47,792 bases of DNA from Candidatus Levybacteria bacterium RIFCSPHIGHO2_01_FULL_40_16 (lineage in GTDB: Bacteria; Patescibacteriota; Microgenomatia; Levybacterales; UBA12049), in contig MFNS01000007.1 of the NCBI GenBank assembly GCA_001783805.1, positions 155,975 through 203,766 on the forward strand, given 5' to 3'. Under the pieces are notes generated by a model, which made no database searches, was not told the origin of the DNA, and was given only the letters and a program-made list of their open reading frames with translations. Below, in pieces: positions 4,731 through 44,211 of the stretch; within the stretch, counting starts at the first letter, position 1; every line of letters begins with the position of its first letter. A program made the position numbers and the translations under genes.

Positions 4731-5354
4731 TTATGAGTATAGCTTATTCTCTATTATATAATCTTTTACTCTTTTTGGTACCATGTTTGAAATAGATTTA
4801 TCCAGCACCGAATCGGTGCTGGATTTATTCCTCTTAATTCTCTCACGCGTAAGTTTTGAGGAAACATAAATTGGCGGGAATTTTTTTTGGTCAATTGAGA
4901 TAATGTTCTTTGGAAATAAAACTTGCTTGCTAATTTCTTGAAGTTTTATCTCTGCTTTCTTAAAACCGGTTCTGGGAACAATAATCAGTTTGAAATTATT
5001 AATAATTTTTTTCCACTCTTTCCATTTTGTAAAACTGTCAACCTGATCGGTTCCGATAATCCAGGAAAATTTGTCCTGCGGATGCTTTTTAGCTAATTCT
5101 CTAAGAGTGTCAATAGTGTAGCTAATTGTTTTTTTCCTTATTTCAAGATCAGAAACCTTAGTTGGGCCCTTTTCCAAATATTTGGTCATCTCTAGCCTTT
5201 TGTTGGGATCTGATAAATTTTTATTGAAAGGGTGTTGATAGCAGGGCATCAGCCAGACTGAATTAAAGTGAAATAATCTTATTAATTTATTAGCGATAGC
5301 CACATGTCCCTTGTGAGGAGGATCAAAACTTCCGCCCAGAATTGCAATATTCAT
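4731..5354 (-). CDS. nadD: Nicotinate-nucleotide adenylyltransferase
   Basis: GGSFDPPHKGH (HxGH), SYTIDTL, IIGTD, W..W; start taken at MNIAIL. Confidence 0.95.
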   Translation of the reverse strand: MNIAILGGSFDPPHKGHVAIANKLIRLFHFNSVWLMPCYQHPFNKNLSDPNKRLEMTKYLEKGPTKVSDLEIRKKTISYTIDTLRELAKKHPQDKFSWIIGTDQVDSFTKWKEWKKIINNFKLIIVPRTGFKKAEIKLQEISKQVLFPKNIISIDQKKFPPIYVSSKLTRERIKRNKSSTDSVLDKSISNMVPKRVKDYIIENKLYS

Positions 5355-5477
5355 GCCACTTCGCTTGACCCCTTTTCCTGCATTTGTTTTTATCATATTA
5401 ATTCACCAGCTTACTTGTTCCTCGTTCTTAAGCTTCGGGGCATGACCCTTCCGTAGTTTTAACGAAGGATGGTCATG
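5352..5477. repeat. Doublet of oppositely oriented CTTCG/CGAAG-type hairpins
   Basis: catgccacttcgcttga...ttaagcttcggggcatg (5352-5444) and catgacccttccgtagttttaacgaaggatggtcatg (5441-5477). Confidence 0.7.
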
Positions 5478-5508
5478 TTTTACGGCTTTATTCTAGGTCT
5501 TTTGCGGA

Positions 5509-5862
5509 TTATTTACAAGATGAAAGCGGTTTAAAAACAATACAAAGAAGATCGGTTCCTAGGAAAGCGCTGACTGCGCTGACCATTAAAAAGGATAAGA
5601 AAATCAAAACTAATCCCAAAATTGCATAAGTTACTCTTTGCCGACCCCGGTTAAGTTTGTCTTTTTTCCCTTCGGATTGAATGATGTCAATTCCGCCCTG
5701 GATGATGAAATAAAGAGCGGTTAAAATCGCGATTATCAAAGCAAGGTTAAGAAAAGCCTGTATGATCTTCGAACCTGTTTCCAGCCCGCCGGTTGGCACG
5801 CCCCCGGGTGGGTTTAAGTCGACCTGTCCGTACCCCGGAACATTAATAGATAGATATTTCAT
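5509..5862 (-). CDS. VirB2/TrbC-like pilin
   Basis: QGGIDIIQSEGKKDKLNRGR between two TM helices. Confidence 0.8.
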   Translation of the reverse strand: MKYLSINVPGYGQVDLNPPGGVPTGGLETGSKIIQAFLNLALIIAILTALYFIIQGGIDIIQSEGKKDKLNRGRQRVTYAILGLVLIFLSFLMVSAVSAFLGTDLLCIVFKPLSSCK

Positions 5863-5868
5863 AAATGA

Positions 5869-7014
5869 TTATTCAAAACCCGGAATCTTTAGAATATCAA
5901 CGCCGACGATTTGCAAGATAACAAAAGAAAAAATAATAAACAAAAGGCCGATGACAGCCGAAATCAGCTGTTCGGTTGCACCCTTAACTGCTTCCGGATT
6001 TCCCCGGGAAACCATAAATTTATACCCGGCAATGATAATTAAAATTAAAGCAATCCCTCCGGCCAGCCCCAAAACAATGCTAAAAACAGATTTCACAAAA
6101 CTTGCAGGATCCGTGCTGATAATTCCAAGCGCAGTATCTACGGAGAGACATTTCTTTGTGCTTTCATCAAATTCTTTGCAGGGAGGAGGAACAGCTGGGA
6201 TTTGCTCGTCAGAAGATAGTGATGCATTTTTTGTTTGGTCGCAAGACGTATCACCCTCGGGAGGATTAGTGGTGAAAGATAATGCGATACAGTTTTCTCC
6301 GGTTCTCTCTTGTCCTTCCATGTCCACACAGATCTGCCGTTTTTCCGCTCTTTTAGTTTCTTCACGTGGAACAGTTATTGTTAAATTAGAGCCGGAAGCG
6401 TCAGATCTTCCGATAAATTTGTGATCTGCAAAAAAACCATCGCTTTTCCACCACCAGCGATAATTAGTATCCGGCTGTAATCTGGTAGCTATTAAGATCA
6501 CTTCTTCTCCGATTTGAAATGAACATTTAGATTGAGCAAGCGGATCTATCTTTGGAAGATTTGCGGGAGGCTGTGTTGGGGTTGGCGTTGCGGCTGCGCT
6601 AACCATAATAGAAGTTTTACTTACTATATTGCTTTGGTTTGCGCAGTCAGATAGGTTGGATGCTTTTGAGCAGACCTCAAGGATCCATACTCCGGGATTA
6701 GTTTTTCCGATAGCCCCCTGAAACAAGTTAAGATTGGCAATTAAAGTTTGTGAATTTTGAGGATTTTTTCTGTCTGTGGTGAAATAATTAAGAGATCCGC
6801 CAAGGGCTACGCTTTGGGGGTGTGCAAAAATAACATATCTTACTGATGTTTGGAAGTTGCAGTCGGTGGTAGTTATTGTAACATCCCCGTTGTAATCAGG
6901 AGGGAATGAACTGGGATTGGCGCTAATTGTGCATGCATAGGAAGGTGTGGCTAAAAAGAGAAATATAATTAAAAAGGAAAATGAAATTAAAATATTTAAA
7001 CAAACTTTCCTCAC
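5869..7014 (-). CDS. Large pilin-domain protein (Cys-rich extracellular N-terminus, C-terminal VirB2-like pilin)
   Basis: Signal peptide ending SYA, several Cys, TPTP linker, C-terminal AGYKFMVSRGNPEAVKGATE with 2 TM; start taken at GTG 7014. Confidence 0.75.
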   Translation of the reverse strand: MRKVCLNILISFSFLIIFLFLATPSYACTISANPSSFPPDYNGDVTITTTDCNFQTSVRYVIFAHPQSVALGGSLNYFTTDRKNPQNSQTLIANLNLFQGAIGKTNPGVWILEVCSKASNLSDCANQSNIVSKTSIMVSAAATPTPTQPPANLPKIDPLAQSKCSFQIGEEVILIATRLQPDTNYRWWWKSDGFFADHKFIGRSDASGSNLTITVPREETKRAEKRQICVDMEGQERTGENCIALSFTTNPPEGDTSCDQTKNASLSSDEQIPAVPPPCKEFDESTKKCLSVDTALGIISTDPASFVKSVFSIVLGLAGGIALILIIIAGYKFMVSRGNPEAVKGATEQLISAVIGLLFIIFSFVILQIVGVDILKIPGFE

Positions 7015-7119
7015 CCATTCATCGTAGACAAATTTGGTTATTTTTGCAACAGCGTAAAGCCCTTCAGGCCACATTGCAAGCTAAAATTCAAAAACTCAAA
7101 TATATGCTAAGCTGGCTTT

Positions 7120-7461
7120 ATGGACATGGGCTGGAAAATTATTTACTATATTTCAGCCAGCGGAGAAAATCCTGTCAGGGATTTTTTGGATAATTACCCA
7201 AAAGCCAAACTAAAAGCTTTAAGAATTCTTTCCCATATTGAAGAATTTGGTTTGAGCTATGCAATACCGCACGTTAAAAAATTAGCCGGTACACCTTTTT
7301 GGGAAATCAGAATTTTGGGAAGAGACAGCATCAGAATTCTTTATGTCACAAAACACGAAAAACAAATATTGCTGCTGCACGCATTCATTAAGAAGACCAA
7401 TAAAACACCGAGAAAGGAAATTAATATTGGTCTATCAAGATTATCAGAAATTAGTTCTTGA
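7120..7461 (+). CDS. RelE/HigB-like (Gp49-type) toxin
   Basis: GENPVRDFL, PHVKKL, WEIR, RILY, LLHAFIKKTNKTP. Confidence 0.85.
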   Translation: MDMGWKIIYYISASGENPVRDFLDNYPKAKLKALRILSHIEEFGLSYAIPHVKKLAGTPFWEIRILGRDSIRILYVTKHEKQILLLHAFIKKTNKTPRKEINIGLSRLSEISS

Positions 7462-7486
7462 CAAAATATATTCTAGAAGATATAAT
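7458..7486 (+). promoter_or_regulatory. Consensus sigma70 promoter with internal operator palindrome for the antitoxin
   Basis: TTGACA (7458-63), 17 nt, TATAAT (7481-86); spacer contains a ttctagaa-centred palindrome; ATG 6 nt after the -10. Confidence 0.75.
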
Positions 7487-7492
7487 CTTTGT

Positions 7493-7777
7493 ATGAAAAG
7501 AAATACCTATACTTTGCGGGAACACATACGGGAGAGCTTAAGAAATCCTGAATTTAAAAATGAATGGGAAAAAAGCGAACCGGCCTATCAATTAAGCAGG
7601 GCTTTAATTAAAAAAAGGCTTGTTCATAAAATATCGCAAGTTGGTTTAGCCAAAAAGGCTAATACTACCCAAGCAGTCATCTCAAGGCTGGAGAATATGA
7701 GCGTCAATCCCTCGCTGGAATTGTTACAACGCATAGCGAGAGCTTTAAATGTCGGTCTGAAAATTCAGTTCGAATAA
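7493..7777 (+). CDS. XRE-family HTH antitoxin (HigA-like)
   Basis: SQVGLAKKANTTQAVISRLE...NPSLELLQRIA; lies downstream of the toxin. Confidence 0.85.
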   Translation: MKRNTYTLREHIRESLRNPEFKNEWEKSEPAYQLSRALIKKRLVHKISQVGLAKKANTTQAVISRLENMSVNPSLELLQRIARALNVGLKIQFE

Positions 7778-8032
7778 TTTTTTGATCCTGATTTTTTTGA
7801 CATCTTAAGATCAAAAATTCTACTCCTCAAATATTCAAAGTCGAAGGCGTCGAGAATATCCAACTTCAAGAAATCAAATCCCTACCGTCTAGTTTAAGTC
7901 AGGTTGATTTGTCAAGATTAATCAATTTTCAGAGAGTATTATGCGGACGTCATGAACATGAAAGAAGGAAAACCAATTGATTTGACAAGCGTGCCTCAAA
8001 AACGTATTCTAAATGAAGACGGAGATATTTTT

Positions 8033-11452: not shown

Positions 11453-11455
11453 TTA

Positions 11456-13310: not shown

Positions 13311-13384
13311 GTGCCTGTAGCTTAATGGATACCCGCCGACGCTGAAGCTTTGGCGGGCAGGGAGCATTCAGATTGCCTGGCACG
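13311..13384 (+). pseudogene. tRNA-Arg-like relic with a palindromic insertion in the D-arm
   Basis: gtgcctg-tagcttaatggata, a 30-nt hairpin insert, then gagca; anticodon and T arms missing; ends ggcac. Confidence 0.65.
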
Positions 13385-13388
13385 TTAA

Positions 13389-13461
13389 GTCCTTGTAGCT
13401 TAATGGATAGAGCATTGGGTTGCGAACCCAACGATTGGGAGTTCGAATCTCCCCGAGGACA
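13389..13461 (+). tRNA. tRNA-Arg (anticodon GCG)
   Basis: Acceptor gtccttg/cgaggac, anticodon arm ttggg-ttGCGaa-cccaa, T-loop gttcgaatc. Confidence 0.95.
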
Positions 13462-13496
13462 CATAAAGACTTTTACGTGCCGGAGCTGCGGGCATT

Positions 13497-13581: not shown

Positions 13582-13586
13582 CCCTT

Positions 13587-13662
13587 GTCCTCGTAGTTCA
13601 ACTGGATAGACCTGCCCGCCATCCCGATTTAATCGGGAAGGCAAATGCAGGCGGGGCGTCAG
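13587..13662 (+). pseudogene. 5' half of a tRNA-Arg-like gene interrupted by a nested palindrome
   Basis: gtcctcgtagttcaactggataga, a 45-nt insert (13611-13655), then gcgtcag, abutting the next tRNA. Confidence 0.65.
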
Positions 13663-14273: not shown

Positions 14274-14912
14274 TTAACTTGTAGTTTTTTCCAGAGGGAA
14301 GTTTTTTTCAAGCCAAAGACCTGATTTTTCCATAAAATTTTGTCTGATGACCTCTCTGTAAGGCAGATAGGAGAGAAGAGCGGATTTAATGTGCTCGCGG
14401 TCGATATTACCCAAAGTTAGTGTTAGTTCTCCGGGAATAAACGAATGAGTCCGGATATGGACCACATCAACGCCTTCTTTCTTTTTAAAATAAAAATCAT
14501 ATAATTCCTGCCAGAGAAAAAAATGATCCTCAACTGTCACTCCTTCACTGGAAATTCGATATTTAAAATCAGACGGTGCAATCGAAGCTAGGGCAAAAGC
14601 GACAAAAAGCAGAGATAAAACTACCAGCATGAGCATATATTGGGAAAAAAGAAACAAAATCACTTCAATTAAGAGCATGATTAAGAGACCGGTTAAGTAG
14701 TATTGTTTACTTCTTTTTCGGAAGGGTCTTCCGGGAGCGCTCCATTCCAAAATCGTCTCAACCGTATTCTGATGCGCTTGAGGCTTGTTTAATTCCAAAG
14801 GTTCTTTGGGTAAACCTTGCCTGCCGGCAGGCAGGTCCAGCGGTTCCTTCGGAAGCATTTTTTCTCCCGCCTCAGCGGGATCCCGCATTTGCGGTGATTC
14901 TTGGGTAGCCAT
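14274..14912 (-). CDS. Conserved CPR membrane protein (2 TM plus PH-like C-terminus)
   Basis: LEWSAPGRPF, 2 TM, YRISSEGV..DHFFLWQEL; contains an LPAGRQG palindrome insert. Confidence 0.7.
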   Translation of the reverse strand: MATQESPQMRDPAEAGEKMLPKEPLDLPAGRQGLPKEPLELNKPQAHQNTVETILEWSAPGRPFRKRSKQYYLTGLLIMLLIEVILFLFSQYMLMLVVLSLLFVAFALASIAPSDFKYRISSEGVTVEDHFFLWQELYDFYFKKKEGVDVVHIRTHSFIPGELTLTLGNIDREHIKSALLSYLPYREVIRQNFMEKSGLWLEKNFPLEKTTS

Positions 14913-15595: not shown

Positions 15596-15611
15596 AAGTA
15601 TTTTTAATGAA

Positions 15612-15848
15612 TCAAATTAAATGTCTTCTTAGGAATGCTCTCCCCGATCCTGATTTTAAATATTTTTCAAATTTAAAAGCCGTATATCTATTTTTAAAAG
15701 CAAAATATCCTATTAAAATCACTGGCAATCTAGATTTAGTTGCAGAGATGTTTCCCTTATTATGTCTAGCCACTCTTTCTTTTAGATCATCCGTGCAACC
15801 AATATAAGTCTTCTTATCTGAACATATTAGCAAATAAACATAGTGCAT
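15612..15848 (-). CDS. Stand-alone GIY-YIG nuclease (78 aa)
   Basis: YVY-x9-YIG, TDDLKERVARHN, ATKSRLP, FEKYLKSGSGR. Confidence 0.92.
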   Translation of the reverse strand: MHYVYLLICSDKKTYIGCTDDLKERVARHNKGNISATKSRLPVILIGYFAFKNRYTAFKFEKYLKSGSGRAFLRRHLI

Positions 15849-15855
15849 ATTTTTA

Positions 15856-15935
15856 GGCGGACTGCGTCTCGCCGTAGCTAAGCCGAATCCCGCCTTCGTT
15901 CTGCAAAGCAGAACTTCGGCGAGGCAAAGGCGGAG
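15856..15935. repeat. Nested CTTCG/CGTAG hairpins linking the tRNA-Ser 3' end to the GIY-YIG gene
   Basis: Inner cccgccttcg-ttctgc-aaa-gcagaa-cttcggcgagg (15889-15924); outer ctcgccgtagc...gcaaaggcggag overlaps the tRNA end. Confidence 0.75.
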
Positions 15936-16018
15936 GAGACAGGATTCGAACCTGCGTGAGCCTTTCGGCTCAGAGCTTTAGCAAAGCTCCGCAATTGACC
16001 GGACTATGCGACTCCTCC
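15931..16018 (-). tRNA. tRNA-Ser (GCT)
   Basis: Minus strand gagct-ttGCTaa-agctc, long variable arm, gttcgaatc. Confidence 0.95.
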
Positions 16019-16065: not shown

Positions 16066-16800
16066 GTGGGATTATTGGATTTTTTCTTTCCCAAACATTG
16101 TGTGAATTGCCGGAAAATAGGGGATTACATTTGCGCCAACTGTTTTTCTTTTATCTCCTTTGATGTTTCCATGATTTGTTTGGTCTGCAACAAGGGTTCA
16201 ATTGACGGGTTAACTCATCCGGGGTGCCGGGGAAAATATACGATTGACGGGGCGTTTGCGGGAGTTAGTTACAAGAGAACTATTAAAAAATTAATTTATA
16301 ATTTTAAATACAAGCCTTACCTCGCCGACTTGAGAAGCGTTTTAACAGACCTTTTTTGCGAATCGCTTATTCAGCAGGAACTTTTTCAAAAAGCTCTCGG
16401 ATTTTCACCGATTCTGGTGCCGATTCCGCTTTACTCAAAAAGATTGCGAAAAAGAGGTTATAATCACGCAAAGCTATTGACAGAAGGCTTATCAAAAAAA
16501 CTTAATCTTAAAATGGTTGAGGTCTTGCAAAGAACCAAAGAAACCAAGTCTCAATTCGGATTAACCCTCAAAGAAAGAAAAGAAAACATCAAGGACGCTT
16601 TTACTCTTGCTCCAAATATCCCCGCCTTCGCCAAGGCTTCCACCTTCGCAAATGCTTCGGCGGACAGGTCGGCGGGCAAGGCCAATATCCTCCTCGTCGA
16701 CGATATCTTAACCACCGGCTCAACTCTTTTGGAAGCGGCCAAAATGCTTAAGAAAAGCGGAGTGAAAAAAGTCTGGGGATTAACTCTGGCAAGAGATTAA
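16066..16800 (+). CDS. comF: ComF-family phosphoribosyltransferase-like competence protein
   Basis: Double Zn-ribbon N-terminus, RGYNHA, ERKENI, LLVDDILTTGSTL; in-frame palindrome insert before the PRT motif. Confidence 0.9.
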   Translation: MGLLDFFFPKHCVNCRKIGDYICANCFSFISFDVSMICLVCNKGSIDGLTHPGCRGKYTIDGAFAGVSYKRTIKKLIYNFKYKPYLADLRSVLTDLFCESLIQQELFQKALGFSPILVPIPLYSKRLRKRGYNHAKLLTEGLSKKLNLKMVEVLQRTKETKSQFGLTLKERKENIKDAFTLAPNIPAFAKASTFANASADRSAGKANILLVDDILTTGSTLLEAAKMLKKSGVKKVWGLTLARD

Positions 16801-18968: not shown

Positions 18969-19205
18969 TTATATTAATCTTTTATTTCTAAATGCAAAGC
19001 CTGAATTAGTTTTTAGATACTTTTCAAAATGCAAAGCTTTCAGTTTCGAAACAAAAGCTGAGTAGTGTACCAATTTAAGAGGTCTTAAATTTCTTGTTTG
19101 AGAAACTTCCCCCTTTTGATGAGTAGCTACACGTTGTTTCAAATCAGATGAGTAACCAATATATAAAGTTTTATCCCTTAATTGAAGAATATAAACATAA
19201 TACAT
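18969..19205 (-). CDS. Stand-alone GIY-YIG nuclease (78 aa)
   Basis: YVY-x9-YIG, SDLKQRVATHQ, FEKYLKTNSG; start taken at MYYVY, which has TGC-TACAAT 6 nt upstream. Confidence 0.92.
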   Translation of the reverse strand: MYYVYILQLRDKTLYIGYSSDLKQRVATHQKGEVSQTRNLRPLKLVHYSAFVSKLKALHFEKYLKTNSGFAFRNKRLI

Positions 19206-19230
19206 GAGGAAATTGTAGCAGAAATAAAAA

Positions 19231-19369
19231 TGTCCCACTTCGTCCCTCTTCGCTTGCGCTACAATGGGATTACGTTTGGGACACTCTTCTTTTCAGCCAT
19301 AATGTCTTACTAACGAAGTGTGGCTGTGCCACTTCGTAGCTCATAAGTTTACTTATGAGCGAAGAGTGG
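19231..19369. repeat. Doublet of CTTCG/CGTAG hairpins linking the tmRNA 3' end to the GIY-YIG gene
   Basis: tgtcccacttcg-tccc[tcttcgcttgcgctac]..ggga-ttacgtttgggaca (19231-19283) and ccacttcgta-gctcataagt-tt-acttatgagc-gaagagtgg (19329-19369). Confidence 0.8.
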
Positions 19370-19735
19370 AGATGTCGAGCTGTGAGCTCGAGTCCAAGAA
19401 ATTACTATAAAAACTTCTACAAGCTTAGTTGATTATTTTGTGTCGCGCTATTTTTTTCTAATCAACAAGAATTAATAGCGTCAAGGTTGATAAATACAAT
19501 AAGGATAGAAACCAACTGCCCTCACCATCTCTCAACTGTAGTTATGCTTATAAAGTCCCGTTGAGAAAAGACTTCATAAACAGTTCAGCTTGTCTTAAGC
19601 GTATAAATACGCTTGTCGAAAAGCGAACGCTGGCATTTTATTGCTAGCATTTAATTTTTGATCAGTTTTACGACGTTTGATCGTTGTCGGCTTGCTGTTT
19701 TTTAAAGTGCAATCTTGTCGATGCAATGCATCCCC
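19367..19735 (-). ncRNA. ssrA: tmRNA
   Basis: 5' GGGGATG pairs with 3' CATCTCC-A, with a G3.U70 pair; tag ORF ASNKMPAFAFRQAYLYA* (19648-19595); adjacent to smpB. Confidence 0.92.
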
Positions 19736-19787: not shown

Positions 19788-20234
19788 TTAGCCTTGTTTT
19801 GCCTCTTCCAATTCCTGCTCGACTTCGCGTTGAATATCTTTTTTCTTGATTGATTCTTTTTTGTCATATTGTTTTTTGCCTTTGCCCAAGGCAATTTCGA
19901 CTTTGATAAAACTTTTGGTGGTGTACATTGACAGAGGAACCAAAGTCAGATTTTGACCTTCGGTTTTGGATTTTAGAGCAATAATTTCACTTTTGTGAAG
20001 TAATAATTTTCTAGTGCGCTGTTCGTCATAATTTTCGGGTCTCGCATATTGATAGGGGAAGATCTTGGCATTGATCAAATACGCCTCAGAACCCATAATC
20101 CGCACGTGAGACCCAGTTAAATCCGCATGTCCCAAGCGCACAGCCTTGACCTCGGCCCCATAAAGATTTATTCCGGCCTCAAATTTTTCCAAAATTTGAT
20201 AATCAAAAAACGCCCGCTTATTCGCAATTTTCAT
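19788..20234 (-). CDS. smpB: SsrA-binding protein
   Basis: NKRAFFDY, EAGI.L.G.EVK, RTRKLLLH, GKKQYDKKE. Confidence 0.97.
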   Translation of the reverse strand: MKIANKRAFFDYQILEKFEAGINLYGAEVKAVRLGHADLTGSHVRIMGSEAYLINAKIFPYQYARPENYDEQRTRKLLLHKSEIIALKSKTEGQNLTLVPLSMYTTKSFIKVEIALGKGKKQYDKKESIKKKDIQREVEQELEEAKQG

Positions 20235-20479
20235 TTATATGCTCCTTGTCTGTGTAGAATAGAAACTACAAAAATAGTTTTTTGCTCCGGTTGAATAAGA
20301 TAAAGTATTCTATATGGCCAAGCCCGTAGCGAATAAACCCCTGCAAATCTTCCTTCTAGTTTTTTCCCAAGATGAGGATTTGTTTCGAGTAATTTTAACC
20401 TTTGCTGTACTTTAAACAATTCTTTTTTTGGAAGACGTTTGCAGTGGGAGAGTGCTTTTGGGGTAATAATGATATGCAT
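20231..20479 (-). CDS. RelE/ParE-family toxin
   Basis: GKKLEG, YSLR..YRILY, ILHRQGAYK; its stop overlaps the smpB start (ATGA). Confidence 0.88.
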   Translation of the reverse strand: MHIIITPKALSHCKRLPKKELFKVQQRLKLLETNPHLGKKLEGRFAGVYSLRAWPYRILYLIQPEQKTIFVVSILHRQGAYK

Positions 20480-20484
20480 ACTGC

Positions 20485-20739
20485 TTATTTTAATTCGGAA
20501 AGAGGGATGCCCAAGCCCTTTTTTGCCTCTCTAATCCCAGTCAGAATGTCTTTTTCAGCTCCCGGAATTGCCAATATTTCCGCTGTTTCTTCCAATGATT
20601 CCAGCTCTTCTGCGCTGATTAAAGTTGCTTTTGGCTGGCCTTTGACAGTGATCACCACCCGATCCAGATACTTGTTTACTTTCGAAACGAGATTTGGAAG
20701 ATGTTGTCTCACGTCGGATATTGACATCAAATTAGTCAT
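20485..20739 (-). CDS. Phd/YefM-family antitoxin
   Basis: SISDVRQHL, VVITVKGQPKATLISAEELESLEET; start taken at MTNL. Confidence 0.9.
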   Translation of the reverse strand: MTNLMSISDVRQHLPNLVSKVNKYLDRVVITVKGQPKATLISAEELESLEETAEILAIPGAEKDILTGIREAKKGLGIPLSELK

Positions 20740-20748
20740 ATTAAATGA

Positions 20749-20777
20749 AGTGTACAACAACATGTACACCTTGTCAA
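20749..20777 (-). promoter_or_regulatory. TA promoter with YefM-type operator
   Basis: Minus strand TTGACA-17-TACACT, overlapped by two TGTACA palindromes 12 bp apart (20751, 20763), the arrangement known for yefM-yoeB operators. Confidence 0.75.
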
Positions 20778-20875
20778 TGAGTAAAATGGGCATATATACC
20801 ATGACCTCATGGGCTAAGAAGAGTATGTAGGCAGCTCATGTAGAATTTTTTGTCATAACTTGATACCATCAACTC

Positions 20876-23410
20876 ATGGACGATATTATCTCCCTCAAAG
20901 ATGGCTACATATTAGATAGAGCTACAAATAAACCCGTTGATATTAGAAAACCCGAAGAAGAAGTAAGACAGGAATATGAAAAAACCCTGCGTGAGGATTA
21001 TGACTACGATTATGAACGAATGGATATAGAAGTCTCCATTCAACGAGGAGAAGTCCACAACAAAAAAAATCAGAAAGAAAGAGCTGACATTGTAATTTAT
21101 AAAACCTCTAATAAAGCACAAAGAGACCAAAATAAAGATATTTTAGGAATTGTAGAAACAAAAAAACCGACAAAAAAAGATGGGATAGAACAACTAATGA
21201 GCTACATGTCTGCTACTACTGCTCTTTGGGGAGTGTGGATAAATGGCGAGGAAATAGAATATGTCTATAGAGACATAAAAACAGGAGAACTGAAAGAGGA
21301 TTATATTCATCAAATACCAAGTAGCGGTGAAACTTTTGAAGACATAGAAAGAATAACAAAAGAAGATTTAAAACCTGTTCAAAATCTGAAACCTATTTTT
21401 AGAAGAATGTATTACACTCTTTATTCAAATACCAACATAGCAAGAAAAGAAAAATTAGGAAGCGAAATGACAAGATTGATTTTTTGTAAAATTTATGATG
21501 AGAAATATGATTTAGATAAACCACCAAAATTTAAAATAGGCTTTAATGATAGCCCCGAAGATGTCAAAAAGAATGTAGAAGAATTATGGGAGAAAGTTAA
21601 AAAATACCTTGTTGAAGATGGTATTTTTGAACAGCACGAAAAAATAGTCTTAGACCCTAAATCAATTGTTTATATTGTTAGAGAATTAGAAAAATATAGC
21701 TTGACGAAAACTGACAAAGATGTTATCGGAGACGCTTTTGAAGTTTTTGCAGAAAGACAATTTGTGGGTGATAAAGGGGAGTTTTTCACACCACGCCAAG
21801 TTGTAAAGATGGCAGTAGATATTATCAATCCTCAACCGGAAGAAAGATTATTAGACCCTGCCTGTGGAAGCGGAGGATTTTTAATTTATGCCCTAGAACA
21901 TGTATGGGGCATTATGAACAATAGCCCAAAATATAAAGGAAGTAATCTTGAGGATGAAAAGAAAGAATTTGCCCGCAAATACTTTTATGGTATTGATAAA
22001 GAAATTGATTTAGTAAAAATTTGCAAAGCGTATATGTCTATTATTGGAGATGGAAGAAGCAGTATTGTCAAAGCCGATAGCCTCAAAAGTCCCGACGAAT
22101 GGGAAAACGCTGCGAGAACTATTTTAACCGAAGACGGCAAAGACCAAATGAAGAAATTTGATGTTATCTTAACAAATCCTCCCTTTGGCAGTAAAATAAA
22201 AGTCCATCACGAATATATATTAAAAAATTATGACTTAGGACATAAATGGATATTTAAAGATGAGAAATGGATAATGACAAATGAAACAAAAGAGACAGAA
22301 CCACAAATACTTTTTATTGAATTATGTCTTAATTTATTAAAAGATGGAGGAAGAATGGCGATAGTTCTCCCTGATGGTATTTTTGGAAATCCTACTGATG
22401 GTTATATACGAGAATGGATAAAAGATAAAGCAGAAATTTTGGCAATTATTGATTGCCCGCATAATACATTTATGCCTCATACTCACACAAAAACCTCCCT
22501 ACTTGTTCTTAAAAAATGGGATAAAACAAAGCAAAAAAATTACCCAATAATGATGAGTGTTGTGAATAAATGTGGACATGATACAAGAGGGAATGAAGTT
22601 TATACAAAAAATGAAAATGATAAGGAGATTTTAGATGAAGAGTTTTCCAAAGTTTCCGAGATTTATAAAACATATCAGAATAGAGTTATAAAGGGATTTG
22701 ATAGATTAGGCTTTACTCTTTACGAAGGTGGTTTAATAAATGGTATCTTAATACCAAGATATTATGACCCTGACACAATAAAAGATATTCAGAAATTAGA
22801 AGATACGGGGCGGTATGAAATGAAGTCAATTCAAGACCTTGTTGATGAAAAAGTCTTAGAAATTAAAGGAGCCGGTGGAACTGCACCAAGTAAAGACTAC
22901 AATATCTATGATGAAATCCCATTTTTGAGAACATCCGATATAGGGGCTTGGGAAACCAGAAATTATGCTGTGCAGAATGTGAATGAACTCACTTATCTTA
23001 AATATAAAGACAAGCAGAGTTTAAAAGAGGGAGACATGTTGTTTATAAAGGATGGAACATATAGAATTGGAGAAACTTTAATTCTTACTAAATATGATTT
23101 AAAAATGCTTGTTCAAAGTCATTTTCTAAAAATAAGGTCGCTTGATAAAGATGGTATGGACCCGTATTTGCTTCTATATTTGCTCCATGTTCCTGTAGTT
23201 AGAAAACAGATAGATGAAAAAACTTTTGTCCAAGCAACTTTATCTACAATTGGTGATAGATTAAACGAAATCATAATTCCAATTCCAAAAGACAAAGGAA
23301 TAAGAGAAAAAATAGGAATTGCTATGAGAGAAAAATTAGAAGCAAGAGCTAGGTTAAGAGCAGAAATAAGAGAAGTTTTTAATAAAGGCATAGAAGATGA
23401 AAATTCATAA
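20876..23410 (+). CDS. Fused restriction endonuclease / N6-adenine methyltransferase / TRD (type IIG-like or type I-derived)
   Basis: N-terminal KPEEEVRQ..RADIVIY..IVETKK nuclease motif; GEFFTP, LLDPACGSGGFL, NPPF; C-terminal HsdS-like TRD. Confidence 0.9.
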   Translation: MDDIISLKDGYILDRATNKPVDIRKPEEEVRQEYEKTLREDYDYDYERMDIEVSIQRGEVHNKKNQKERADIVIYKTSNKAQRDQNKDILGIVETKKPTKKDGIEQLMSYMSATTALWGVWINGEEIEYVYRDIKTGELKEDYIHQIPSSGETFEDIERITKEDLKPVQNLKPIFRRMYYTLYSNTNIARKEKLGSEMTRLIFCKIYDEKYDLDKPPKFKIGFNDSPEDVKKNVEELWEKVKKYLVEDGIFEQHEKIVLDPKSIVYIVRELEKYSLTKTDKDVIGDAFEVFAERQFVGDKGEFFTPRQVVKMAVDIINPQPEERLLDPACGSGGFLIYALEHVWGIMNNSPKYKGSNLEDEKKEFARKYFYGIDKEIDLVKICKAYMSIIGDGRSSIVKADSLKSPDEWENAARTILTEDGKDQMKKFDVILTNPPFGSKIKVHHEYILKNYDLGHKWIFKDEKWIMTNETKETEPQILFIELCLNLLKDGGRMAIVLPDGIFGNPTDGYIREWIKDKAEILAIIDCPHNTFMPHTHTKTSLLVLKKWDKTKQKNYPIMMSVVNKCGHDTRGNEVYTKNENDKEILDEEFSKVSEIYKTYQNRVIKGFDRLGFTLYEGGLINGILIPRYYDPDTIKDIQKLEDTGRYEMKSIQDLVDEKVLEIKGAGGTAPSKDYNIYDEIPFLRTSDIGAWETRNYAVQNVNELTYLKYKDKQSLKEGDMLFIKDGTYRIGETLILTKYDLKMLVQSHFLKIRSLDKDGMDPYLLLYLLHVPVVRKQIDEKTFVQATLSTIGDRLNEIIIPIPKDKGIREKIGIAMREKLEARARLRAEIREVFNKGIEDENS

Positions 23411-23561
23411 AAAATTAACATTAAAAGAACTTCAAAAAAGACATGCTAAAAATCCTCAAGATAAAAAGTTGCATGATTTCTTAAAAAAAGGCGGTAGGGA
23501 CAATGCTGAAGAGGATTTTAATACTGTATTGGAGAAAGCTGGGAAGACTTCAAAATCTTAA
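23397..23561 (+). CDS. Small 54-aa ORF inside the IS, overlapping the RM gene end and the transposase 3' end
   Basis: Hand translation MKIHKKLTLKELQKRHAKNPQDKKLHDFLKKGGRDNAEEDFNTVLEKAGKTSKS*; below the ORF-track cutoff. Confidence 0.45.
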   Translation: MKIHKKLTLKELQKRHAKNPQDKKLHDFLKKGGRDNAEEDFNTVLEKAGKTSKS

Positions 23562-24429
23562 CCTCCGCAACTTGCTTTAACAAGCTATCAAATATATTTA
23601 TGTCGTTTCTATGATTGTATCTCCATGAGAACTCATCCGAGTAAGATTGTAGGTATTCTTTGGAGACATGCCTATAAACTCCAGTAATTCCTCTTTTTAA
23701 TTGCGACCAAACACCTTCTATATTTTGAGTATGGATTTCTCCTCTTGTATATTCAGAAGCACTATGATTAACCGAAAAATGGTGATAACCATATTTAGAT
23801 AATTGAGTATATCCTGCATAATTATCAGTCATGATACTTGCGTTTTTATCAACATTCTTCTGAATTTCCTCAAGTAAGGTATATTTTCCTGTATTTGGAA
23901 TATGTTTTGTATGAAGTTTTCCACCTCTTTCAACCATACCCATAATTACTTCTTTTGGTATTTCGCTAAAGTTTGGCTTAAAAGCTCTATTTTTACCTTT
24001 TCCTCCCACAAAAGTTTCGTCTATTTCAACATTTCCGCTTAATAAGTCTCCCTTTGTTTCTGTCATTAAAAGTCTTATTTTCTTAAACATTCTGTGAGCT
24101 GTTTTATATGTGACGCCAAGCTCTCTTTGAAGTTGCTTTGCAGATATGCCTGAACGGGTCTGTGTCATTATGTAGATTGCGTAAAACCAGTATTGAAGTG
24201 GAGTAGTTGTTTTCTCAAAGATAGTTCCCGCTAGAGGAGAGACTTGATGGCTTCCCCCAAATTCACATTCAAAAACGGGACGACCTTTTATTTTATAGAA
24301 TTTAGTGATTTTTTCACATTGTTTACAGAATATTCCATTTGACCAACGGAGGTCTTTAATCTTTTCTAAGCATTTGTCATTATCGGAGTATTTTTTAAGG
24401 AATACTCCAAGGCTAAACTTTTCTATCAT
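23518..24429 (-). CDS. IS1595-family transposase
   Basis: Zn ribbon (CKQC..C..H), GISAKQLQRELGVTYKTA HTH, VEIDET, IMTD, VNHS, TQNIEGVW, DEFSWRYN. Confidence 0.95.
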   Translation of the reverse strand: MIEKFSLGVFLKKYSDNDKCLEKIKDLRWSNGIFCKQCEKITKFYKIKGRPVFECEFGGSHQVSPLAGTIFEKTTTPLQYWFYAIYIMTQTRSGISAKQLQRELGVTYKTAHRMFKKIRLLMTETKGDLLSGNVEIDETFVGGKGKNRAFKPNFSEIPKEVIMGMVERGGKLHTKHIPNTGKYTLLEEIQKNVDKNASIMTDNYAGYTQLSKYGYHHFSVNHSASEYTRGEIHTQNIEGVWSQLKRGITGVYRHVSKEYLQSYSDEFSWRYNHRNDINIFDSLLKQVAEVKILKSSQLSPIQY

Positions 24430-29490: not shown

Positions 29491-30156
29491 ATGGAAATAA
29501 TCCCCGGAATTTTGGAAAAGGATTGGACGAAAATTAAAAAAAAATTGGAAATTGTCAAACCTTTTGCAAAATCGGCTCACATAGATATTCTGGACGGAAA
29601 ATTTGCCCCCAACACCACTTTTTTAGACCCAACCCCGTTTGTTAAATATAGTCATTCTTCGACAGGCTCAGGATTGTTTTTGGAGCTGCACATGATGGTT
29701 GAAGAGCCAATTCAATATTTGAAACCTTTTTCGGATGTAGGATTTAAAAGATTTATCGGGCATGTTGAATGCCTCCGCCAGCCGGCGGATCAGGCTGAAT
29801 TTGTCACTAAAGCACGTGAATTGGGAGAAGTCGGGTTAGCAATTGACGGACAGACACCACTAACAAATCTTAAAGTTTCTTTAACCGATTTAGATTGCGT
29901 TTTGATAATGACCATCAAAGCCGGATTTTCCGGACAAAAATTTAATCCGGAGTATTTGAAAAAAGTTGAGATTCTTCGCTCCGCTCGGGATGACATCAAT
30001 ATAGAAGTGGATGGAGGAATTAATGATAAAACAATTACTCAGGCAATTCAGGCCGGCGCGGATAGATTTGTTGCAAACAGCTTTATCTTTAATTCACCAA
30101 ATCCTCAAGAACAATTTGATATATTAAAGAATATTGCCGAAACCCGCCTTCGTTAA
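29491..30156 (+). CDS. rpe: Ribulose-phosphate 3-epimerase
   Basis: HIDILDGKF, ELHMMV, IMTIKAGFSGQ, EVDGGI, GAD; start taken at MEIIP. Confidence 0.92.
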   Translation: MEIIPGILEKDWTKIKKKLEIVKPFAKSAHIDILDGKFAPNTTFLDPTPFVKYSHSSTGSGLFLELHMMVEEPIQYLKPFSDVGFKRFIGHVECLRQPADQAEFVTKARELGEVGLAIDGQTPLTNLKVSLTDLDCVLIMTIKAGFSGQKFNPEYLKKVEILRSARDDINIEVDGGINDKTITQAIQAGADRFVANSFIFNSPNPQEQFDILKNIAETRLR

Positions 30157-30177
30157 AACTTCGGCGGGCGAGGGGAG

Positions 30178-39709: not shown

Positions 39710-39723
39710 AGACAGAAGGCAAT

Positions 39724-40407: not shown

Positions 40408-40460
40408 TTGACACAACAGATTTAGCGTTCTATATTGGGTATTGACACTAGTAGTAGTGT
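40408..40460 (+). promoter_or_regulatory. sigma70 promoter with two NrdR boxes
   Basis: TTGACA (40408), 17 nt, TATATT (40431); 16-mers acaacagatttagcgt (40413, 11/16 to consensus) and acactagtagtagtgt (40445, 12/16), 32 bp apart. Confidence 0.7.
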
Positions 40461-40464
40461 TTTT

Positions 40465-40914: not shown

Positions 40915-40974
40915 CATTCAGACTACGGCTTACAGACTACAGTAGTCTGTAGACTGAAAGCGGAAAGCATAGTT

Positions 40975-43431
40975 ATGAAATTGGATGGAGTAAGGGAAAA
41001 AGTATTTAAAGACAGGTATGCCCTTAAAGGTAAAAATGGTGAGCTTTTGGAACACAAACCGGAAGAGATGTGGAAAAGAGTTGCAAGAGGCATCGCACGG
41101 AACGAAAAGCCAAGCAAAAGAAAATATTGGGCCAAAAAATTCTATGACGTTATGACCGACTTCAAATTTGTCCCCGGAGGAAGAATTTTGTCGGGTGCCG
41201 GAACAAAATATCAGGTTACCTACTTTAACTGCTTTGTTATCCCGTCTCCAAAAGACTCTCGCGGCGGAATCGTAGATTCCCTAAAGCAATTAATTGAAAT
41301 CCAGTCCCGCTCCGGCGGAGTAGGGCTTAATCTTTCATCTCTGCGCCCGAGAGGTGCCAGGGTGAAAAAAGTTAACGGAACATCTTCAGGTCCGGTTACC
41401 TGGGCCGGACTTTTCTCTTATGCCACTCATGACGTAGTCCAGCAAGGCGGAACCCGCAGGGGGGCAACCATGCTCATGCTTTGGGATTGGCATCCGGATA
41501 TCGAAGAATTTATCACAGTTAAGCAGGACCTCTCAAAAATTAACGGAGCAAATCTATCTGTTTGCGTTTCGGATGCTTTTATGGAAGCAGTCAAGAAAGA
41601 CAAAAAGTGGGATTTGGTTTATCCGGATTTGGATGATTCCCGCTATGATGCAAAATGGGATGGAGATCTGGCGCAGTGGCGCAAAATAAAAGGGAAAGTA
41701 AAAGTTTATAAAACCGTAAAAGCAAAATATCTTTGGGATTTAATTTGTACTGCGGCCTGGCGTTCTGCCGAACCGGGGCTGCACTTCCTGGAGAGGTCCA
41801 ACAAAAGATCCAATACTCATTATTTCGAAACATTAATTGCGACAAATCCTTGCGGGGAGCAGCCATTAGGCGCTTGGGCGGTTTGTAATTTAGGAGCAAT
41901 GAATTTGGCTGCTTATGTAAAAAACGGCAAATTCGATTATACGAATTTTGGCCTCGATGTGCGGGTCGCGATGCGGTTATTGGACAATGTTATTGATCAG
42001 ACATATTATTTCTTTAAAGAGAACGAAAAGTGTGCAAAAGACATCCGCCGGACGGGACTCGGGATAATGGGAATCGGAGATGCACTGATTAAAATGAAAA
42101 TCCGTTACGGGTCCAAAGAATCAATGCCAATAATCAAAAAAATCTTTGAGACACTACGCAATAATGCCTATGATGAATCCTGTAATCTGGCAAAAGAAAA
42201 AGGAGCATTTCCAAAATTCAACAGGAAGAAATATCTTAAAGGTTATCATATCAAAAATCTTCCGGCAGATCTTCGAAAGAAAATCGCCAAGCAGGGAATT
42301 AGAAATGCGGTTTTGTTAACTATTGCTCCAACCGGAACAACCAGTTTAATTTCGGGTGTCAGCTCCGGAATTGAACCGGTTTATGAATTTGTTTTTAAAA
42401 GAAAAGACAGGACCGGCGAGCACATGATGTATCATCCGCTGTATGAGGAGTGGAAAAAACAAAATCCCCCTTCGTCCATTTCAGGGCAAGCTCCGGAAAA
42501 ACCCGCCTATTTTGTCTCGGCAAATGACTTAAGTCCTTTAGAACATGCCCAAGTGCAGGCAGCTGCCCAGGAATTTATTGATTCGTCGATTTCCAAAACA
42601 GTGAACGCTCCAAGTTTCCATACGGTTGAAGATGTTAAAGCTCTTTACATGTCAGCCTATGATTTGGGTCTGAAAGGGCTCGCCTATATGAGAGACGGAT
42701 CCCGAGAGGGGGTATTGGAAAGAATTGTCCCGACGGTTACCTCAGCTCAAACCAAGGCTTCTTCTTCGCCAAAACCGGTTGTTCCCCGTCCAATGTCCCT
42801 TTCGGGAGTGACTTATAAAATTGAAACGCCTGTCGGACACACCTATATAACCCTTAATCATAACGATCAGGGAGAGCCTTTTGAAGTGTTTATGACAATT
42901 GGTAAAGTGGGCTCTGATGTTGCAGCTATGGCTGATGCATTGGGTCGCATGATTTCCCTGAATCTGCGTTTGACTGACGGGCTTTCACCGCGGGAAAGAA
43001 TTAAGCAGGTAGTTGCCCAGCTAATCGGAATTGGGGGAGCAAGAAGTGTTGGCTTTGGTAAGGACCGGGTCAGGTCCTTACCGGACGCGATAGCCAAAGT
43101 CTTGTCAATGCATTATGGGTTTGCTCTGAACGGAAAAGTGGAGGACAAGCCTTTGACAAACGGTTTGACAAATGGCCTGCCCGACATTGCCAAGTCATGG
43201 CAGGCGGGACACGCCAACGGAAGTCTTACGAATGGGCAGATTGAGCCTGAAGTTGTCGAAAATACAGAAATTGTTAAAATGCAGCAATTGGCAATCGACG
43301 GAGGGGCGGCTGCCGCCTTATCGGACACGTCAACCAGTCTTTATGATCTTTGCCCGGAGTGCGGCGGAGGAAGTTTGGCTTATGAAGAAGGCTGTAAAAA
43401 GTGCTATGCCTGCGGATATTCGGAATGTTGA
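40975..43431 (+). CDS. nrdJ: Adenosylcobalamin-dependent class II ribonucleotide reductase with TSCPD and Zn-ribbon C-terminus
   Basis: PGGRIL, NCFV, TNPCGEQPL, CNLG, IAPTGT, SISKTVN, SLPDAIA, CPECG..EGCKKC..CGYSEC. Confidence 0.93.
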   Translation: MKLDGVREKVFKDRYALKGKNGELLEHKPEEMWKRVARGIARNEKPSKRKYWAKKFYDVMTDFKFVPGGRILSGAGTKYQVTYFNCFVIPSPKDSRGGIVDSLKQLIEIQSRSGGVGLNLSSLRPRGARVKKVNGTSSGPVTWAGLFSYATHDVVQQGGTRRGATMLMLWDWHPDIEEFITVKQDLSKINGANLSVCVSDAFMEAVKKDKKWDLVYPDLDDSRYDAKWDGDLAQWRKIKGKVKVYKTVKAKYLWDLICTAAWRSAEPGLHFLERSNKRSNTHYFETLIATNPCGEQPLGAWAVCNLGAMNLAAYVKNGKFDYTNFGLDVRVAMRLLDNVIDQTYYFFKENEKCAKDIRRTGLGIMGIGDALIKMKIRYGSKESMPIIKKIFETLRNNAYDESCNLAKEKGAFPKFNRKKYLKGYHIKNLPADLRKKIAKQGIRNAVLLTIAPTGTTSLISGVSSGIEPVYEFVFKRKDRTGEHMMYHPLYEEWKKQNPPSSISGQAPEKPAYFVSANDLSPLEHAQVQAAAQEFIDSSISKTVNAPSFHTVEDVKALYMSAYDLGLKGLAYMRDGSREGVLERIVPTVTSAQTKASSSPKPVVPRPMSLSGVTYKIETPVGHTYITLNHNDQGEPFEVFMTIGKVGSDVAAMADALGRMISLNLRLTDGLSPRERIKQVVAQLIGIGGARSVGFGKDRVRSLPDAIAKVLSMHYGFALNGKVEDKPLTNGLTNGLPDIAKSWQAGHANGSLTNGQIEPEVVENTEIVKMQQLAIDGGAAAALSDTSTSLYDLCPECGGGSLAYEEGCKKCYACGYSEC

Positions 43432-43486
43432 ATGCGAATTTATACGGATTGTTAATACGAATAAATTCGAATTTAATATTTAGATT

Positions 43487-43597
43487 TAAAGTTAGGTAAT
43501 CATGGTGTAAATCCATGACTGTGCCGCAACTGTTAAAGTCAGAAAACTAACTTTATTTAAATTCCCGAGCAGGATCTTTTCATTGTCCTTCTCGGGA
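43487..43597 (+). promoter_or_regulatory. Compact cobalamin riboswitch with downstream expression hairpin
   Basis: Closing stem taaagttag/ctaacttta, T-loop hairpin catgg-tgtaaat-ccatg, ctgtgccgcaactgt, B12-box-like aagtcaga; hairpin 43563-97 before the adenosyltransferase start. Confidence 0.8.
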
Positions 43598-43611
43598 GAG
43601 AAGGATTTTTT

Positions 43612-44211
43612 ATGCCAATTTATACGCGGACAGGAGACAAAGGGAAAACAACTCTTTTTAACGGACAAAGAGTATCAAAGGGAGATTTAAGAATTGATAC
43701 TTTGGGGACAATTGACGAGCTAAATTCAGCGATCGGAGTTGTACTTGCGGAAACTCAAAACTCAAAACTCAAAACTCAAAACTACAACTCAAAATTAAAA
43801 AGTGAGCTAATTAAAATCCAAAATGATTTATTAAGCATTGGCTCGGCGCTGGCAAATCCGAAAGTTAGCAGTAAGAGGTTAACAGTTAGTAGTTTATCAA
43901 AAAGGGTTAAGGAATTCGAAGATTTTATTGACAAAATGATGAAAAACTTACCACCCCTTTCCAGCTTTATCCTTCCCGGAGGAGGAAAGACAGGCGCCAC
44001 TCTTCATTTGGCCAGAGCAATTTGCCGGCGGGCGGAAAGAAGAATTGTAGAATTAAATTCTAAAGAAAAAACCCTTCGGCTTCGCTCAGGGCAAGTTGAT
44101 AACAGCATCATTATTTACTTCAATCGGCTTTCGGATTTGCTTTTTACCCTGGCCCGTTTTGCGAATTTCAAAGAAAAGAAAAAAGAGATAGTTTGGTCTA
44201 AGAGACATTAA
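43612..44211 (+). CDS. Cob(I)alamin adenosyltransferase (PduO-type)
   Basis: IYTRTGDKGKT, GTIDELNS, FILPGG, ARAICRRAER, NRLSDLLF. Confidence 0.95.
   Translation: MPIYTRTGDKGKTTLFNGQRVSKGDLRIDTLGTIDELNSAIGVVLAETQNSKLKTQNYNSKLKSELIKIQNDLLSIGSALANPKVSSKRLTVSSLSKRVKEFEDFIDKMMKNLPPLSSFILPGGGKTGATLHLARAICRRAERRIVELNSKEKTLRLRSGQVDNSIIIYFNRLSDLLFTLARFANFKEKKKEIVWSKRH

Follow-up and report, generated by a model that had tools for sequence, protein, structure and literature searches.

The locus

The stretch of DNA analysed here (47,792 nucleotides (nt); in the following, the window) belongs to contig MFNS01000007.1 of Candidatus Levybacteria bacterium RIFCSPHIGHO2_01_FULL_40_16. It contains two small genes for GIY-YIG nucleases and a series of short GC-rich hairpins, which are found beside these genes, between other genes and within open reading frames (ORFs). 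The source genome (G000) comprises 0.9 Mb on 7 contigs with 38% G+C and is 98.9% complete. Further gene content of the window includes type IV secretion system-type pilins, DUF5657, DUF5667 and LytR_C proteins, six tRNA genes, one tmRNA gene and one adenosylcobalamin (AdoCbl) riboswitch; the protein-coding part of this inventory is typical of Patescibacteria/CPR. A first-pass annotation had listed 12 hairpin sites and interpreted them as dispersed, non-autonomous copies of the element found next to the nuclease genes. We compared G000 with the congeneric relatives G001, G003, G004, G005 and G006, with an order-level sample of 61 genomes, and with a phylum sample of 151 genomes drawn evenly; G000 is counted in both samples. 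Hairpins were scored with R1, a covariance model derived from 37 copies of G000; its E-values are rough, and for the window sites it was run with filters off. In the list of features, GIY1 and GIY2 are the two nuclease genes, which also name two types of cassette, and H1 and H2 are hairpins of the GIY2-type leader.

5438–5477, minus strand: solo 30-nt hairpin with extended outer stem (R1 31.0 bits, E 4.6e-5; folded)
13327–13366, plus strand: solo copy in the D-loop of a duplicated tRNA-Arg 5' fragment (R1 36.6 bits)
15596–15928, minus strand: GIY1-type cassette of hairpin, spacer and 78-residue GIY-YIG ORF, 333 nt, absent from the corresponding junction of G001
15612–15848, minus strand: GIY1, 78-residue GIY-YIG nuclease, UPF0213/Slx1-like (PF01541 52.6 bits; alignment A2; PDB 1zg2, 1ywl)
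15889–15924, plus strand: hairpin of the GIY1-type cassette at the tRNA-Ser 3' end (R1 21.4 bits, E 0.0074; fold z = -3.3)
15929–16018, minus strand: tRNA-Ser(gct), at whose 3' end the GIY1 cassette begins (tRNA prediction)
16621–16680, plus strand: two nested 30-nt copies, in frame in a ComF-like ORF (16066–16800), read as PAFAKASTFANASADRSAGK
18969–19205, minus strand: GIY2, second 78-residue GIY-YIG gene, in one clade with GIY1 (clade profile 149 bits)
19231–19283, minus strand: leader hairpin H2 of the GIY2 type, built like the family but with an additional inner part inserted (fold z = -5.35; 8 genomes)
19329–19369, minus strand: H1 of the GIY2-type leader, from the tmRNA CCA end (fold; conserved leader)
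19364–19735, minus strand: tmRNA gene, at whose 3' end the GIY2-type cassette begins (Rfam RF00023, 108 bits)
29654–29675, plus strand: decayed short-form copy in the Rpe ORF (15-nt insert, G000 only)
29968–29995, plus strand: decayed short-form copy in Rpe (element present in 5/5 genomes compared)
30138–30177, plus strand: solo copy at the end of rpe (R1 47.1 bits)
42468–42490, plus strand: short-form copy, in frame in a ribonucleotide reductase ORF (21-nt insert; absent in G006 and G001)
44072–44095, plus strand: short-form copy in a PduO-type adenosyltransferase (insert of exactly 24 nt, in frame, read as TLRLRSGQ; lacking in G004 and G006)

Eleven of the 12 sites listed by the first-pass annotation proved to be true members or relatives of one family. 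The exception is 5352–5444, a span without any model match, which covers the start of a nadD-like ORF (4731–5396); the genuine copy at 5438–5477 is intergenic, between this ORF and a pilin-like ORF (5509–5862). The two nested copies postulated at 16621–16680 were found as such: each has a length of 30 nt, and the inner one is located in the 3' half of the outer one; the R1 match inside this pair spans 16634–16673 and scores 38.0 bits. The fragment harbouring the copy at 13327 extends from approximately 13311 to 13388 and is directly upstream of an intact tRNA-Arg(gcg) gene (13389–13462).

A family of miniature hairpins

The full-form unit has a length of 30 nt and the consensus CCCRCCTTCGCYAARGCTWCGGCGGGCAAG, as read from the listed sites and the genome; the short form comprises 24 nt and reads CCCTTCG-N9-10-CTCAGGGCAAG. 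The architecture consists of a 6-bp outer stem, a 3x3 internal loop, an inner stem of 2 bp closed by a small loop, and CAAG as the tail. The internal loop is conserved as TTC/TTC, which is GAA/GAA on the opposite strand. A strict stem/loop descriptor, applied to one strand, detected just 12 sites in G000, since it missed most copies because of mismatches; for this reason, a profile and the covariance model were used instead. The nhmmer profile was based on 26 copies with at most 8 substitutions relative to one genomic seed, and hits were accepted at E ≤ 0.05. It identified 41 copies in G000, of which 26 are its own constituents and 15 are additional; among 20 dinucleotide-shuffled genomes, 18 gave no hit and 2 gave one. 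The expected excess over shuffled sequence thus exists. R1 reported 49 sites in G000 at E ≤ 1, and in the window five at E < 0.01.

Conservation of the fold was assessed by means of alignment A1, which contains 37 of the 41 copies; the 4 omitted ones are half-copies of nested pairs. Under the model structure, 90.5% of 296 cells are paired, compared with 31–52% if the partner is slid. Despite a two-sided change, 31 cells are paired; shuffles gave 10.9 ± 3.2 and none of 500 reached 31. The main covarying pairs are CG 19/UA 11/UG 6 and GC 13/UA 8/CG 4, so that the predicted compensatory changes are indeed present in the outer stem. As the first-pass annotation had also stated, the stem varies while the motif is kept: letters of the loop and the inner stem are nearly invariant, with loop positions TTC.G and CT being conserved to 65–100%, and the tail reads CAAG (CTTG on the opposite strand). 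Wobble asymmetry, which was tested in order to choose the RNA strand, amounted to 14 A.C-type versus 9 G.U-type cells.

A separate CTTCG..TCRGG subfamily had been proposed as well. Its strict short form is genuine, as it occurs five times in the genome (42468 and 44072 are two of these copies) and never in 20 dinucleotide shuffles; the loosest version of the pattern, with 40 occurrences versus 20.6 on average and at most 32 in shuffles, is only about twofold above background. This latter count is what could be said for chance similarity, or for a shared low-complexity peptide motif, as the origin of the sites. For the family as a whole this explanation was refuted by the 41 profile hits versus at most one, by the covariation and by the strict short form; moreover, it is the same DNA that recurs on either strand, in three frames and in intergenic positions. 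We give it a negligible probability.

GIY-YIG cassettes carry the same hairpin design

G000 possesses 11 small GIY-YIG genes and a longer one with an open frame of 431 residues, which is probably uvrC. Eight of the 11 small genes adjoin a tRNA or tmRNA gene that has the same strand. Both nucleases of the window belong to a clade of 78-residue proteins ending in FEKYLKSGSG.AF. Their PF01541 scores are 52.6 and 51.3 bits (cut-off 22.6), and a comparison with the PDB gave the UPF0213 proteins 1zg2 (E 9e-14) and 1ywl (E 2e-8) and, as a weak match, SLX1 (7cq2, E 0.009); a search of PHROGs matched neither nuclease. Alignment A2 shows no variation at the residues Y3, Y5, Y15, R25, H29 and E61; we take them to be the catalytic-type Tyr/Arg/His/Glu positions of the GIY-YIG core. 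In the order sample, the clade profile separated members (at least 113 bits) from other GIY-YIG proteins (at most 92 bits).

The clade loci compared number 16 and come from 14 genomes; at 10 of them, an R1 match (E ≤ 1) was found within approximately 110 nt upstream of the gene, oriented opposite to it in 9 of the 10 cases. By eye, the hairpin design including a CTTG/TTTG tail can be recognised upstream of the gene at all 16 loci, in two types. Only 3 of 14 non-clade GIY-YIG loci had an R1 match; the link is limited to one clade and does not extend to GIY-YIG genes generally.

The GIY1 type begins at the 3' end of tRNA-Ser in 7 of 8 loci and continues with tail, stem, CGAAG, loop, CGAAG and stem. 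In the window, the hairpin at 15889–15924 displays on the minus strand, which is that of the cassette, the order tail, stem, CGAAG, inner stem-loop, CGAAG, stem; the same design follows tRNA-Ser in 7 further genomes. Its R1 match spans 15884–15933, and the site was not part of the R1 training set. The reverse complement of the solo 30-mer corresponds in essence to this tRNA-proximal hairpin, tail included. At the junction of tRNA-Ser(gct) and VIT, G001 has 5 nt compared with the 333 nt of hairpin and gene in G000. As both are missing from G001, the hairpin travels with the gene and is not a pre-existing target.

The GIY2 type begins at a tmRNA or tRNA CCA end and consists of H1, an invariant mini-hairpin, H2 and the ORF. 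In the window, the open frame (18969–19238) is directly downstream of the tmRNA. H1 and H2, which were both unscored by R1, are conserved hairpins of a cassette leader common to 8 genomes; the apical stem of H1 is variable and covarying. On the gene strand, H2 contains G.U pairs and is followed by a run of U that immediately precedes the nuclease ORF (8 genomes, alignment A3). Due to this T-run it looks like a terminator or attenuator, which would, judging from the sequence, silence the nuclease unless read through.

Two further loci of G000 deserve mention. At G000:C7:98900-99400 and G000:C1:250400-250800, other GIY-YIG genes have duplicated tRNA fragments at their flanks: pieces of a tRNA-Asn D-arm on both sides of the gene, each broken by the same 40-nt hairpin, and a duplicated 3' half of tRNA-Val. 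Such fragments beside GIY-YIG genes suggest repeated breakage and repair inside tRNA genes.

Copies behave as insertions in conserved genes

The clearest case of an insertion is RecR. G000, G005 and G006 contain an exact 30-nt in-frame element between the Toprim and the C-terminal domain, where G001, G003 and G004 show a gap of 30 nt. The empty sites hold both A-rich flanks side by side; therefore, no target duplication was generated. Orthologue alignments revealed none at either of the two clean sites, RecR and PduO. A flank scan detected A-rich direct repeats at some copies, which are target context: they are present before insertion at the empty RecR site, and this rules them out as target duplications.

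Altogether, presence/absence polymorphism was observed for RecR, the PduO-type adenosyltransferase, ribonucleotide reductase, Rpe and ComF. The inserts have sizes of 30, 24, 21 and 15 nt, all multiples of three; they keep the frame of the host and are lacking in orthologues. The ComF site is empty in G004 and G006 and contains different inserts in G001, G003 and G005. In this linker, different GC-rich inserts thus occupy 4 of 6 congeners, with 2 of 6 empty, and by its sequence it may attract insertions as a hot spot or else have undergone replacement several times. In NusA, all six genomes have an insert, and one of them has two copies; consequently, no empty site is available there. The Rpe element at 29968 is intact in G001, G004 and G006 and decayed in G000.

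Nearly half of the copies, 20 of 41, are located well inside long ORFs (17 ORFs). Pfam families were assigned to 13 of 15 host ORFs scanned; they include PheT, Rho, a class I aminoacyl-tRNA synthetase, RecR, DprA, Fmt, NusA and several glycosyltransferases, and the insert is often placed between domains. The copies are read in all three frames, as inserts of 8–10 codons. Their lengths are multiples of three, they contain no in-frame stop and their decay is that of coding sequence, so that translation is most likely. The remaining placements are fragments of tRNA genes, other copies of the element and intergenic regions. In 17 of the 20 in-ORF copies, the sense strand is the TTCG strand. Stop codons alone do not explain this bias, since at least two frames stay open when the copy is reversed. 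Possible causes are counter-selection of the GAA/GAA hairpin, which is the stronger one, in mRNA, or a mechanism specific to one strand. The orientation agrees with GC skew in 31 of 41 copies, a figure inseparable from gene strand; among intergenic copies, the value is 10 of 16.

Four public-run contig sets containing this strain showed no indel at the elements. In the same runs, depth was several-fold higher in most element bins (tRNA/tmRNA genes add to it in some), and the borders of the elements are points where contigs break off or diverge. Raised depth and broken contigs indicate that the unit is common in those communities.

One could argue that the hairpins are selected RNA or DNA signals, i. 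e. terminators, processing sites or protein-binding sites, and no insertions at all. Three observations would fit: the resemblance of H2 upstream of GIY2-type genes to an intrinsic terminator on the gene strand, the avoidance of the GAA/GAA-loop strand in mRNA in 17 of 20 in-ORF copies, and the copy at 30138–30177, whose loop provides the TAA stop codon of rpe (30154–30156) and whose tail enters the adjacent ribosome-binding site of the next ORF. However, a signal does not account for presence/absence polymorphism inside conserved ORFs of congeners, for reading in all three frames, or for the decay of old copies in NusA and Rpe. In addition, the T-run of an intrinsic terminator is found at the cassette hairpin H2 only; solo copies as a rule continue from CAAG into varied sequence. 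A signal role is contradicted as the sole explanation and has in our view a very low probability, although individual copies may have been co-opted. In summary, we are highly confident that the dispersed sites represent a family of miniature GC-rich palindromic insertion elements.

Distribution and the search for a mobiliser

R1 matches were found in 50 of 61 genomes of the order sample, with 2–42 copies per genome within the genus, and in 60 of 151 genomes of the phylum sample (59 of 150 without G000). In distant families, the best matches equal those of G000 (E 1e-7 to 1e-8). The hairpin co-occurs with the nuclease clade: in the phylum sample, it is present in 17 of 18 clade-bearing genomes, which represent 15 families, compared with 42 of 132 genomes without the clade. 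As the cassette's own hairpin adds to the match count, the comparison was repeated for genomes with at least three copies, which gave 14 of 18 versus 17 of 132. The odds ratio of the association is approximately 24–36; note that these statistics ignore phylogeny. In the order sample, none of the 11 hairpin-free genomes has a clade member, and all 16 clade genomes have at least two matches.

These findings bear on the claim that the dispersed hairpins derive, as non-autonomous copies, from the element next to the nucleases. Insertion polymorphism, the design shared with the cassettes and the co-occurrence all support it, with the restriction that one GIY-YIG clade is concerned. We consider it probable that the hairpin family is a non-autonomous relative of the end of the GIY-YIG cassette. 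To a similar degree, we favour the more specific view that the cassettes are the autonomous partners, that the solo hairpins are their derivatives and that the nuclease recognises and spreads the hairpin. The nuclease is, as we infer, the most likely candidate for the mobiliser.

Several observations weigh against this assignment. Among clade-negative genomes of the phylum sample, 42 of 132 are still hairpin-positive, and 4 of the 10 genomes with at least ten copies in this sample (G083, G110, G121 and G171) are without a clade member at E ≤ 1e-27. Just one clean empty cassette site is available. The cassette hairpin may be a regulatory RNA, considering the G.U pairs and the U-run of H2; a shared design need not mean shared mobility. 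Finally, we know of no precedent for a GIY-YIG nuclease that moves a 30-nt hairpin to unrelated sites.

An alternative mobiliser would be a Y1 (HUH) transposase resembling the REP-associated tyrosine transposases (RAYTs) of repetitive extragenic palindromic (REP) elements. The hairpins would then be REP-like and would be moved via a single strand, leaving no duplication, and their GIY-YIG neighbours would be incidental. The enzymes of IS200/IS605 and of REP/RAYT systems depend on hairpins and insert without duplication, which fits the properties of the copies described above. G000 has two Y1 genes (PF01797), one of which weakly matches the NCBIfam model REP_Tyr_transpos (35.7 bits, cut-off 80), and all 14 order-level genomes with at least ten copies have a Y1 gene. 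The RAYT-like gene (234 residues) is situated between identical 29-nt perfect palindromes at positions 3450–3480 and 4216–4246 of locus L038 (G000:C4:15000-21500). This palindrome, however, represents another family, of which the genome has about 7 loci; across the genus, R1 matches within 800 nt were absent from all 25 Y1 loci. Co-occurrence in the phylum sample is weak: 34 of 70 genomes with Y1 are hairpin-positive versus 25 of 80 without (p 0.04, phylogeny ignored). At the order level, the Spearman correlation with copy number is 0.46 for Y1 and 0.50 for all GIY-YIG genes, and these values are too similar to discriminate between the two. G083 and G110, with 17 and 22 copies, respectively, have no Y1 match at all. 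PMC3733652 gives GTAG or CGTC as tags of REP elements, and neither is present at the hairpin ends in alignment A1, where the tail is CAAG. We therefore rate a Y1-driven origin as unlikely. As a side observation, relatives carry up to 9 such Y1 genes; this is unusual for RAYTs, which are typically single-copy according to bioRxiv 10.1101/119735.

It is also conceivable that a dedicated mobiliser does not exist and that host repair copies hairpins into chance breaks, in a templated or fold-back-primed manner, with near-neutral accumulation and with the GIY-YIG cassettes as a mere lodging place. This would explain the partial insert sizes of 15, 21, 24 and 30 nt, the replacement of a few flanking bases at the ComF and PduO sites, copies nested in tandem and the fact that 18 of 59 R1-positive genomes contain neither candidate enzyme. 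On the other hand, loop and tail are strongly conserved throughout the phylum, with best E-values in distant families as given above, which suggests recognition by a conserved factor. Likewise, the fixed position and orientation of the hairpin at the cassette ends and the strong association with the clade argue against mere repair, to which we assign a low probability comparable to that of the Y1 transposases.

Returning to the GIY-YIG nuclease as mobiliser, the following mechanism can be envisaged. The enzyme would recognise the hairpin, as extruded or single-stranded DNA, via the conserved loop and the tail; breaks made by the nuclease elsewhere would be repaired with the hairpin copied in. 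Survival would be limited to copies that are in frame and located in tolerant linkers, in most cases such that the mRNA contains the strand with the weaker fold.

Comparison with known systems

In several respects the hairpins are similar to REP elements and to the REP doublets called REPINs. They are short (20–40 nt), GC-rich, imperfect palindromes, occur in many copies and have a tag at one end; as in REP/RAYT systems, non-autonomous repeats are accompanied by a single-domain enzyme gene with the same hairpin beside it. In contrast to REP elements, the location is not extragenic for the 20 of 41 copies well inside long ORFs, and the tail differs from the GTAG/CGTC tags. The hairpin accompanies the gene of a GIY-YIG nuclease, with 0 of 25 Y1 genes being flanked, and copies occur singly or are nested with identical orientation, which distinguishes them from the inverted doublets of REPINs.

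Rickettsia palindromic elements (RPEs) are likewise in-frame palindromic inserts without evident target duplication. RPEs have a length of about 100–150 nt and are without a known partner gene, whereas the elements described here comprise 24–30 nt, are phylum-wide and are tied to a nuclease cassette. The GC clusters of fungal mitochondria, including byp elements, are found in coding regions and beside free-standing endonuclease ORFs, and some of them are bypassed by ribosomes. They share with our family the spreading of GC-rich hairpins through an AT-rich, reduced genome; the differences are that they are organellar and that the inserts studied here are most likely translated.

The Seg genes of T4 are small mobile GIY-YIG genes among tRNA genes with presence/absence polymorphism between relatives. 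One case of such a homing-endonuclease-like polymorphism exists here, namely the junction of tRNA-Ser(gct) and VIT, which is occupied in G000 and empty in G001. SegB is situated in the tRNA gene cluster of T4 according to PMC13096335. Seg proteins possess DNA-binding domains and home by gene conversion; the 78-residue proteins considered here consist of the catalytic domain alone, and their cassettes have a structured hairpin leader which is also found as solo copies. [quoted passage not shown] Unlike MITEs, the hairpins do not bracket unrelated DNA with terminal inverted repeats and caused no target-site duplication at RecR and PduO.

A full-text literature search of openly accessible papers found no description of these hairpins, of in-frame palindromic inserts in this phylum or of a GIY-YIG-hairpin element. 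It is a tentative proposal, which we would not yet call probable, that the 78-residue Slx1/UPF0213-type GIY-YIG cassette and the derived 24–30-nt hairpins, spread phylum-wide and into essential genes, constitute a previously undescribed mobile element.

Further hairpins and neighbouring genes

A second type of GC-rich hairpin, CCTGCCCGCC...GCAGGCGGGG, with a length of about 45 nt, is present at 13586–13662 of the window. It follows a duplicated tRNA 5' fragment and is located just upstream of tRNA-Arg(ccg). A near-identical copy is positioned near G000:C1 404397, and an ARAGORN call of tRNA-Ser(cga) ends just before it. An ill-fitting pattern for this type (CCTGCCCGC...) had 3 matches in the genome versus 0–2 in shuffles. 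Judging from translation only, hairpins of the second type are apparently inserted in frame in two ribosomal proteins encoded at L038, namely L10 (595–1167; ARPPANSSAGEVGQAK) and L1 (4256–5290; GLPATPSQDSGLRGGRGK). A perfect 20-nt GC palindrome, CCTGCCTGCCGGCAGGCAGG, occurs at 14815–14835 inside the ORF 14274–14912 and recurs at G000:C3 near 2202 and at G000:C5 near 38881.

ARAGORN predicted 45 tRNAs genome-wide. The anticodon CAT is present in just one of them, and there is also a tRNA-Ile(tat). The prediction may have overlooked an initiator or elongator tRNA-Met, an interruption of the gene being a possible reason. Near G000:C1:407290, a hairpin occupies the T-loop of a tRNA-like sequence.

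Between the genes of the B12-dependent ribonucleotide reductase and the PduO-type adenosyltransferase, the window contains an AdoCbl-II riboswitch (43478–43557, 57.5 bits). Genes of mobile or defence type are found at 7120–7777, 20231–20802 and 20876–24429; this set consists of a Gp49/HTH pair, a ParE/Phd toxin-antitoxin pair by smpB, a fused HSDR_N/N6-methylase gene and a transposase of the IS1595 family.

Implications

If the tentative proposal of a previously undescribed mobile element is correct, the GIY-YIG cassettes and their hairpins would be a nuclease-driven counterpart of the REP/RAYT system, which reshapes proteins as well as intergenic DNA. Stand-alone UPF0213-type GIY-YIG proteins are widespread and have, to our knowledge, no assigned function; if the link is causal, they gain a role as mobilisers of miniature hairpins. 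A third enzyme class, beside the DDE and HUH transposases, would then be behind bacterial miniature repeats. The recurrent Ala/Ser/Gly/Lys-rich inserts of 8–10 residues in Rho, NusA, PheT, RecR and ribonucleotide reductase would be explained as well. Inserts within proteins affect the annotation, alignment and phylogeny of these lineages, and the elements break metagenome assemblies at their borders and serve as markers of strain history.

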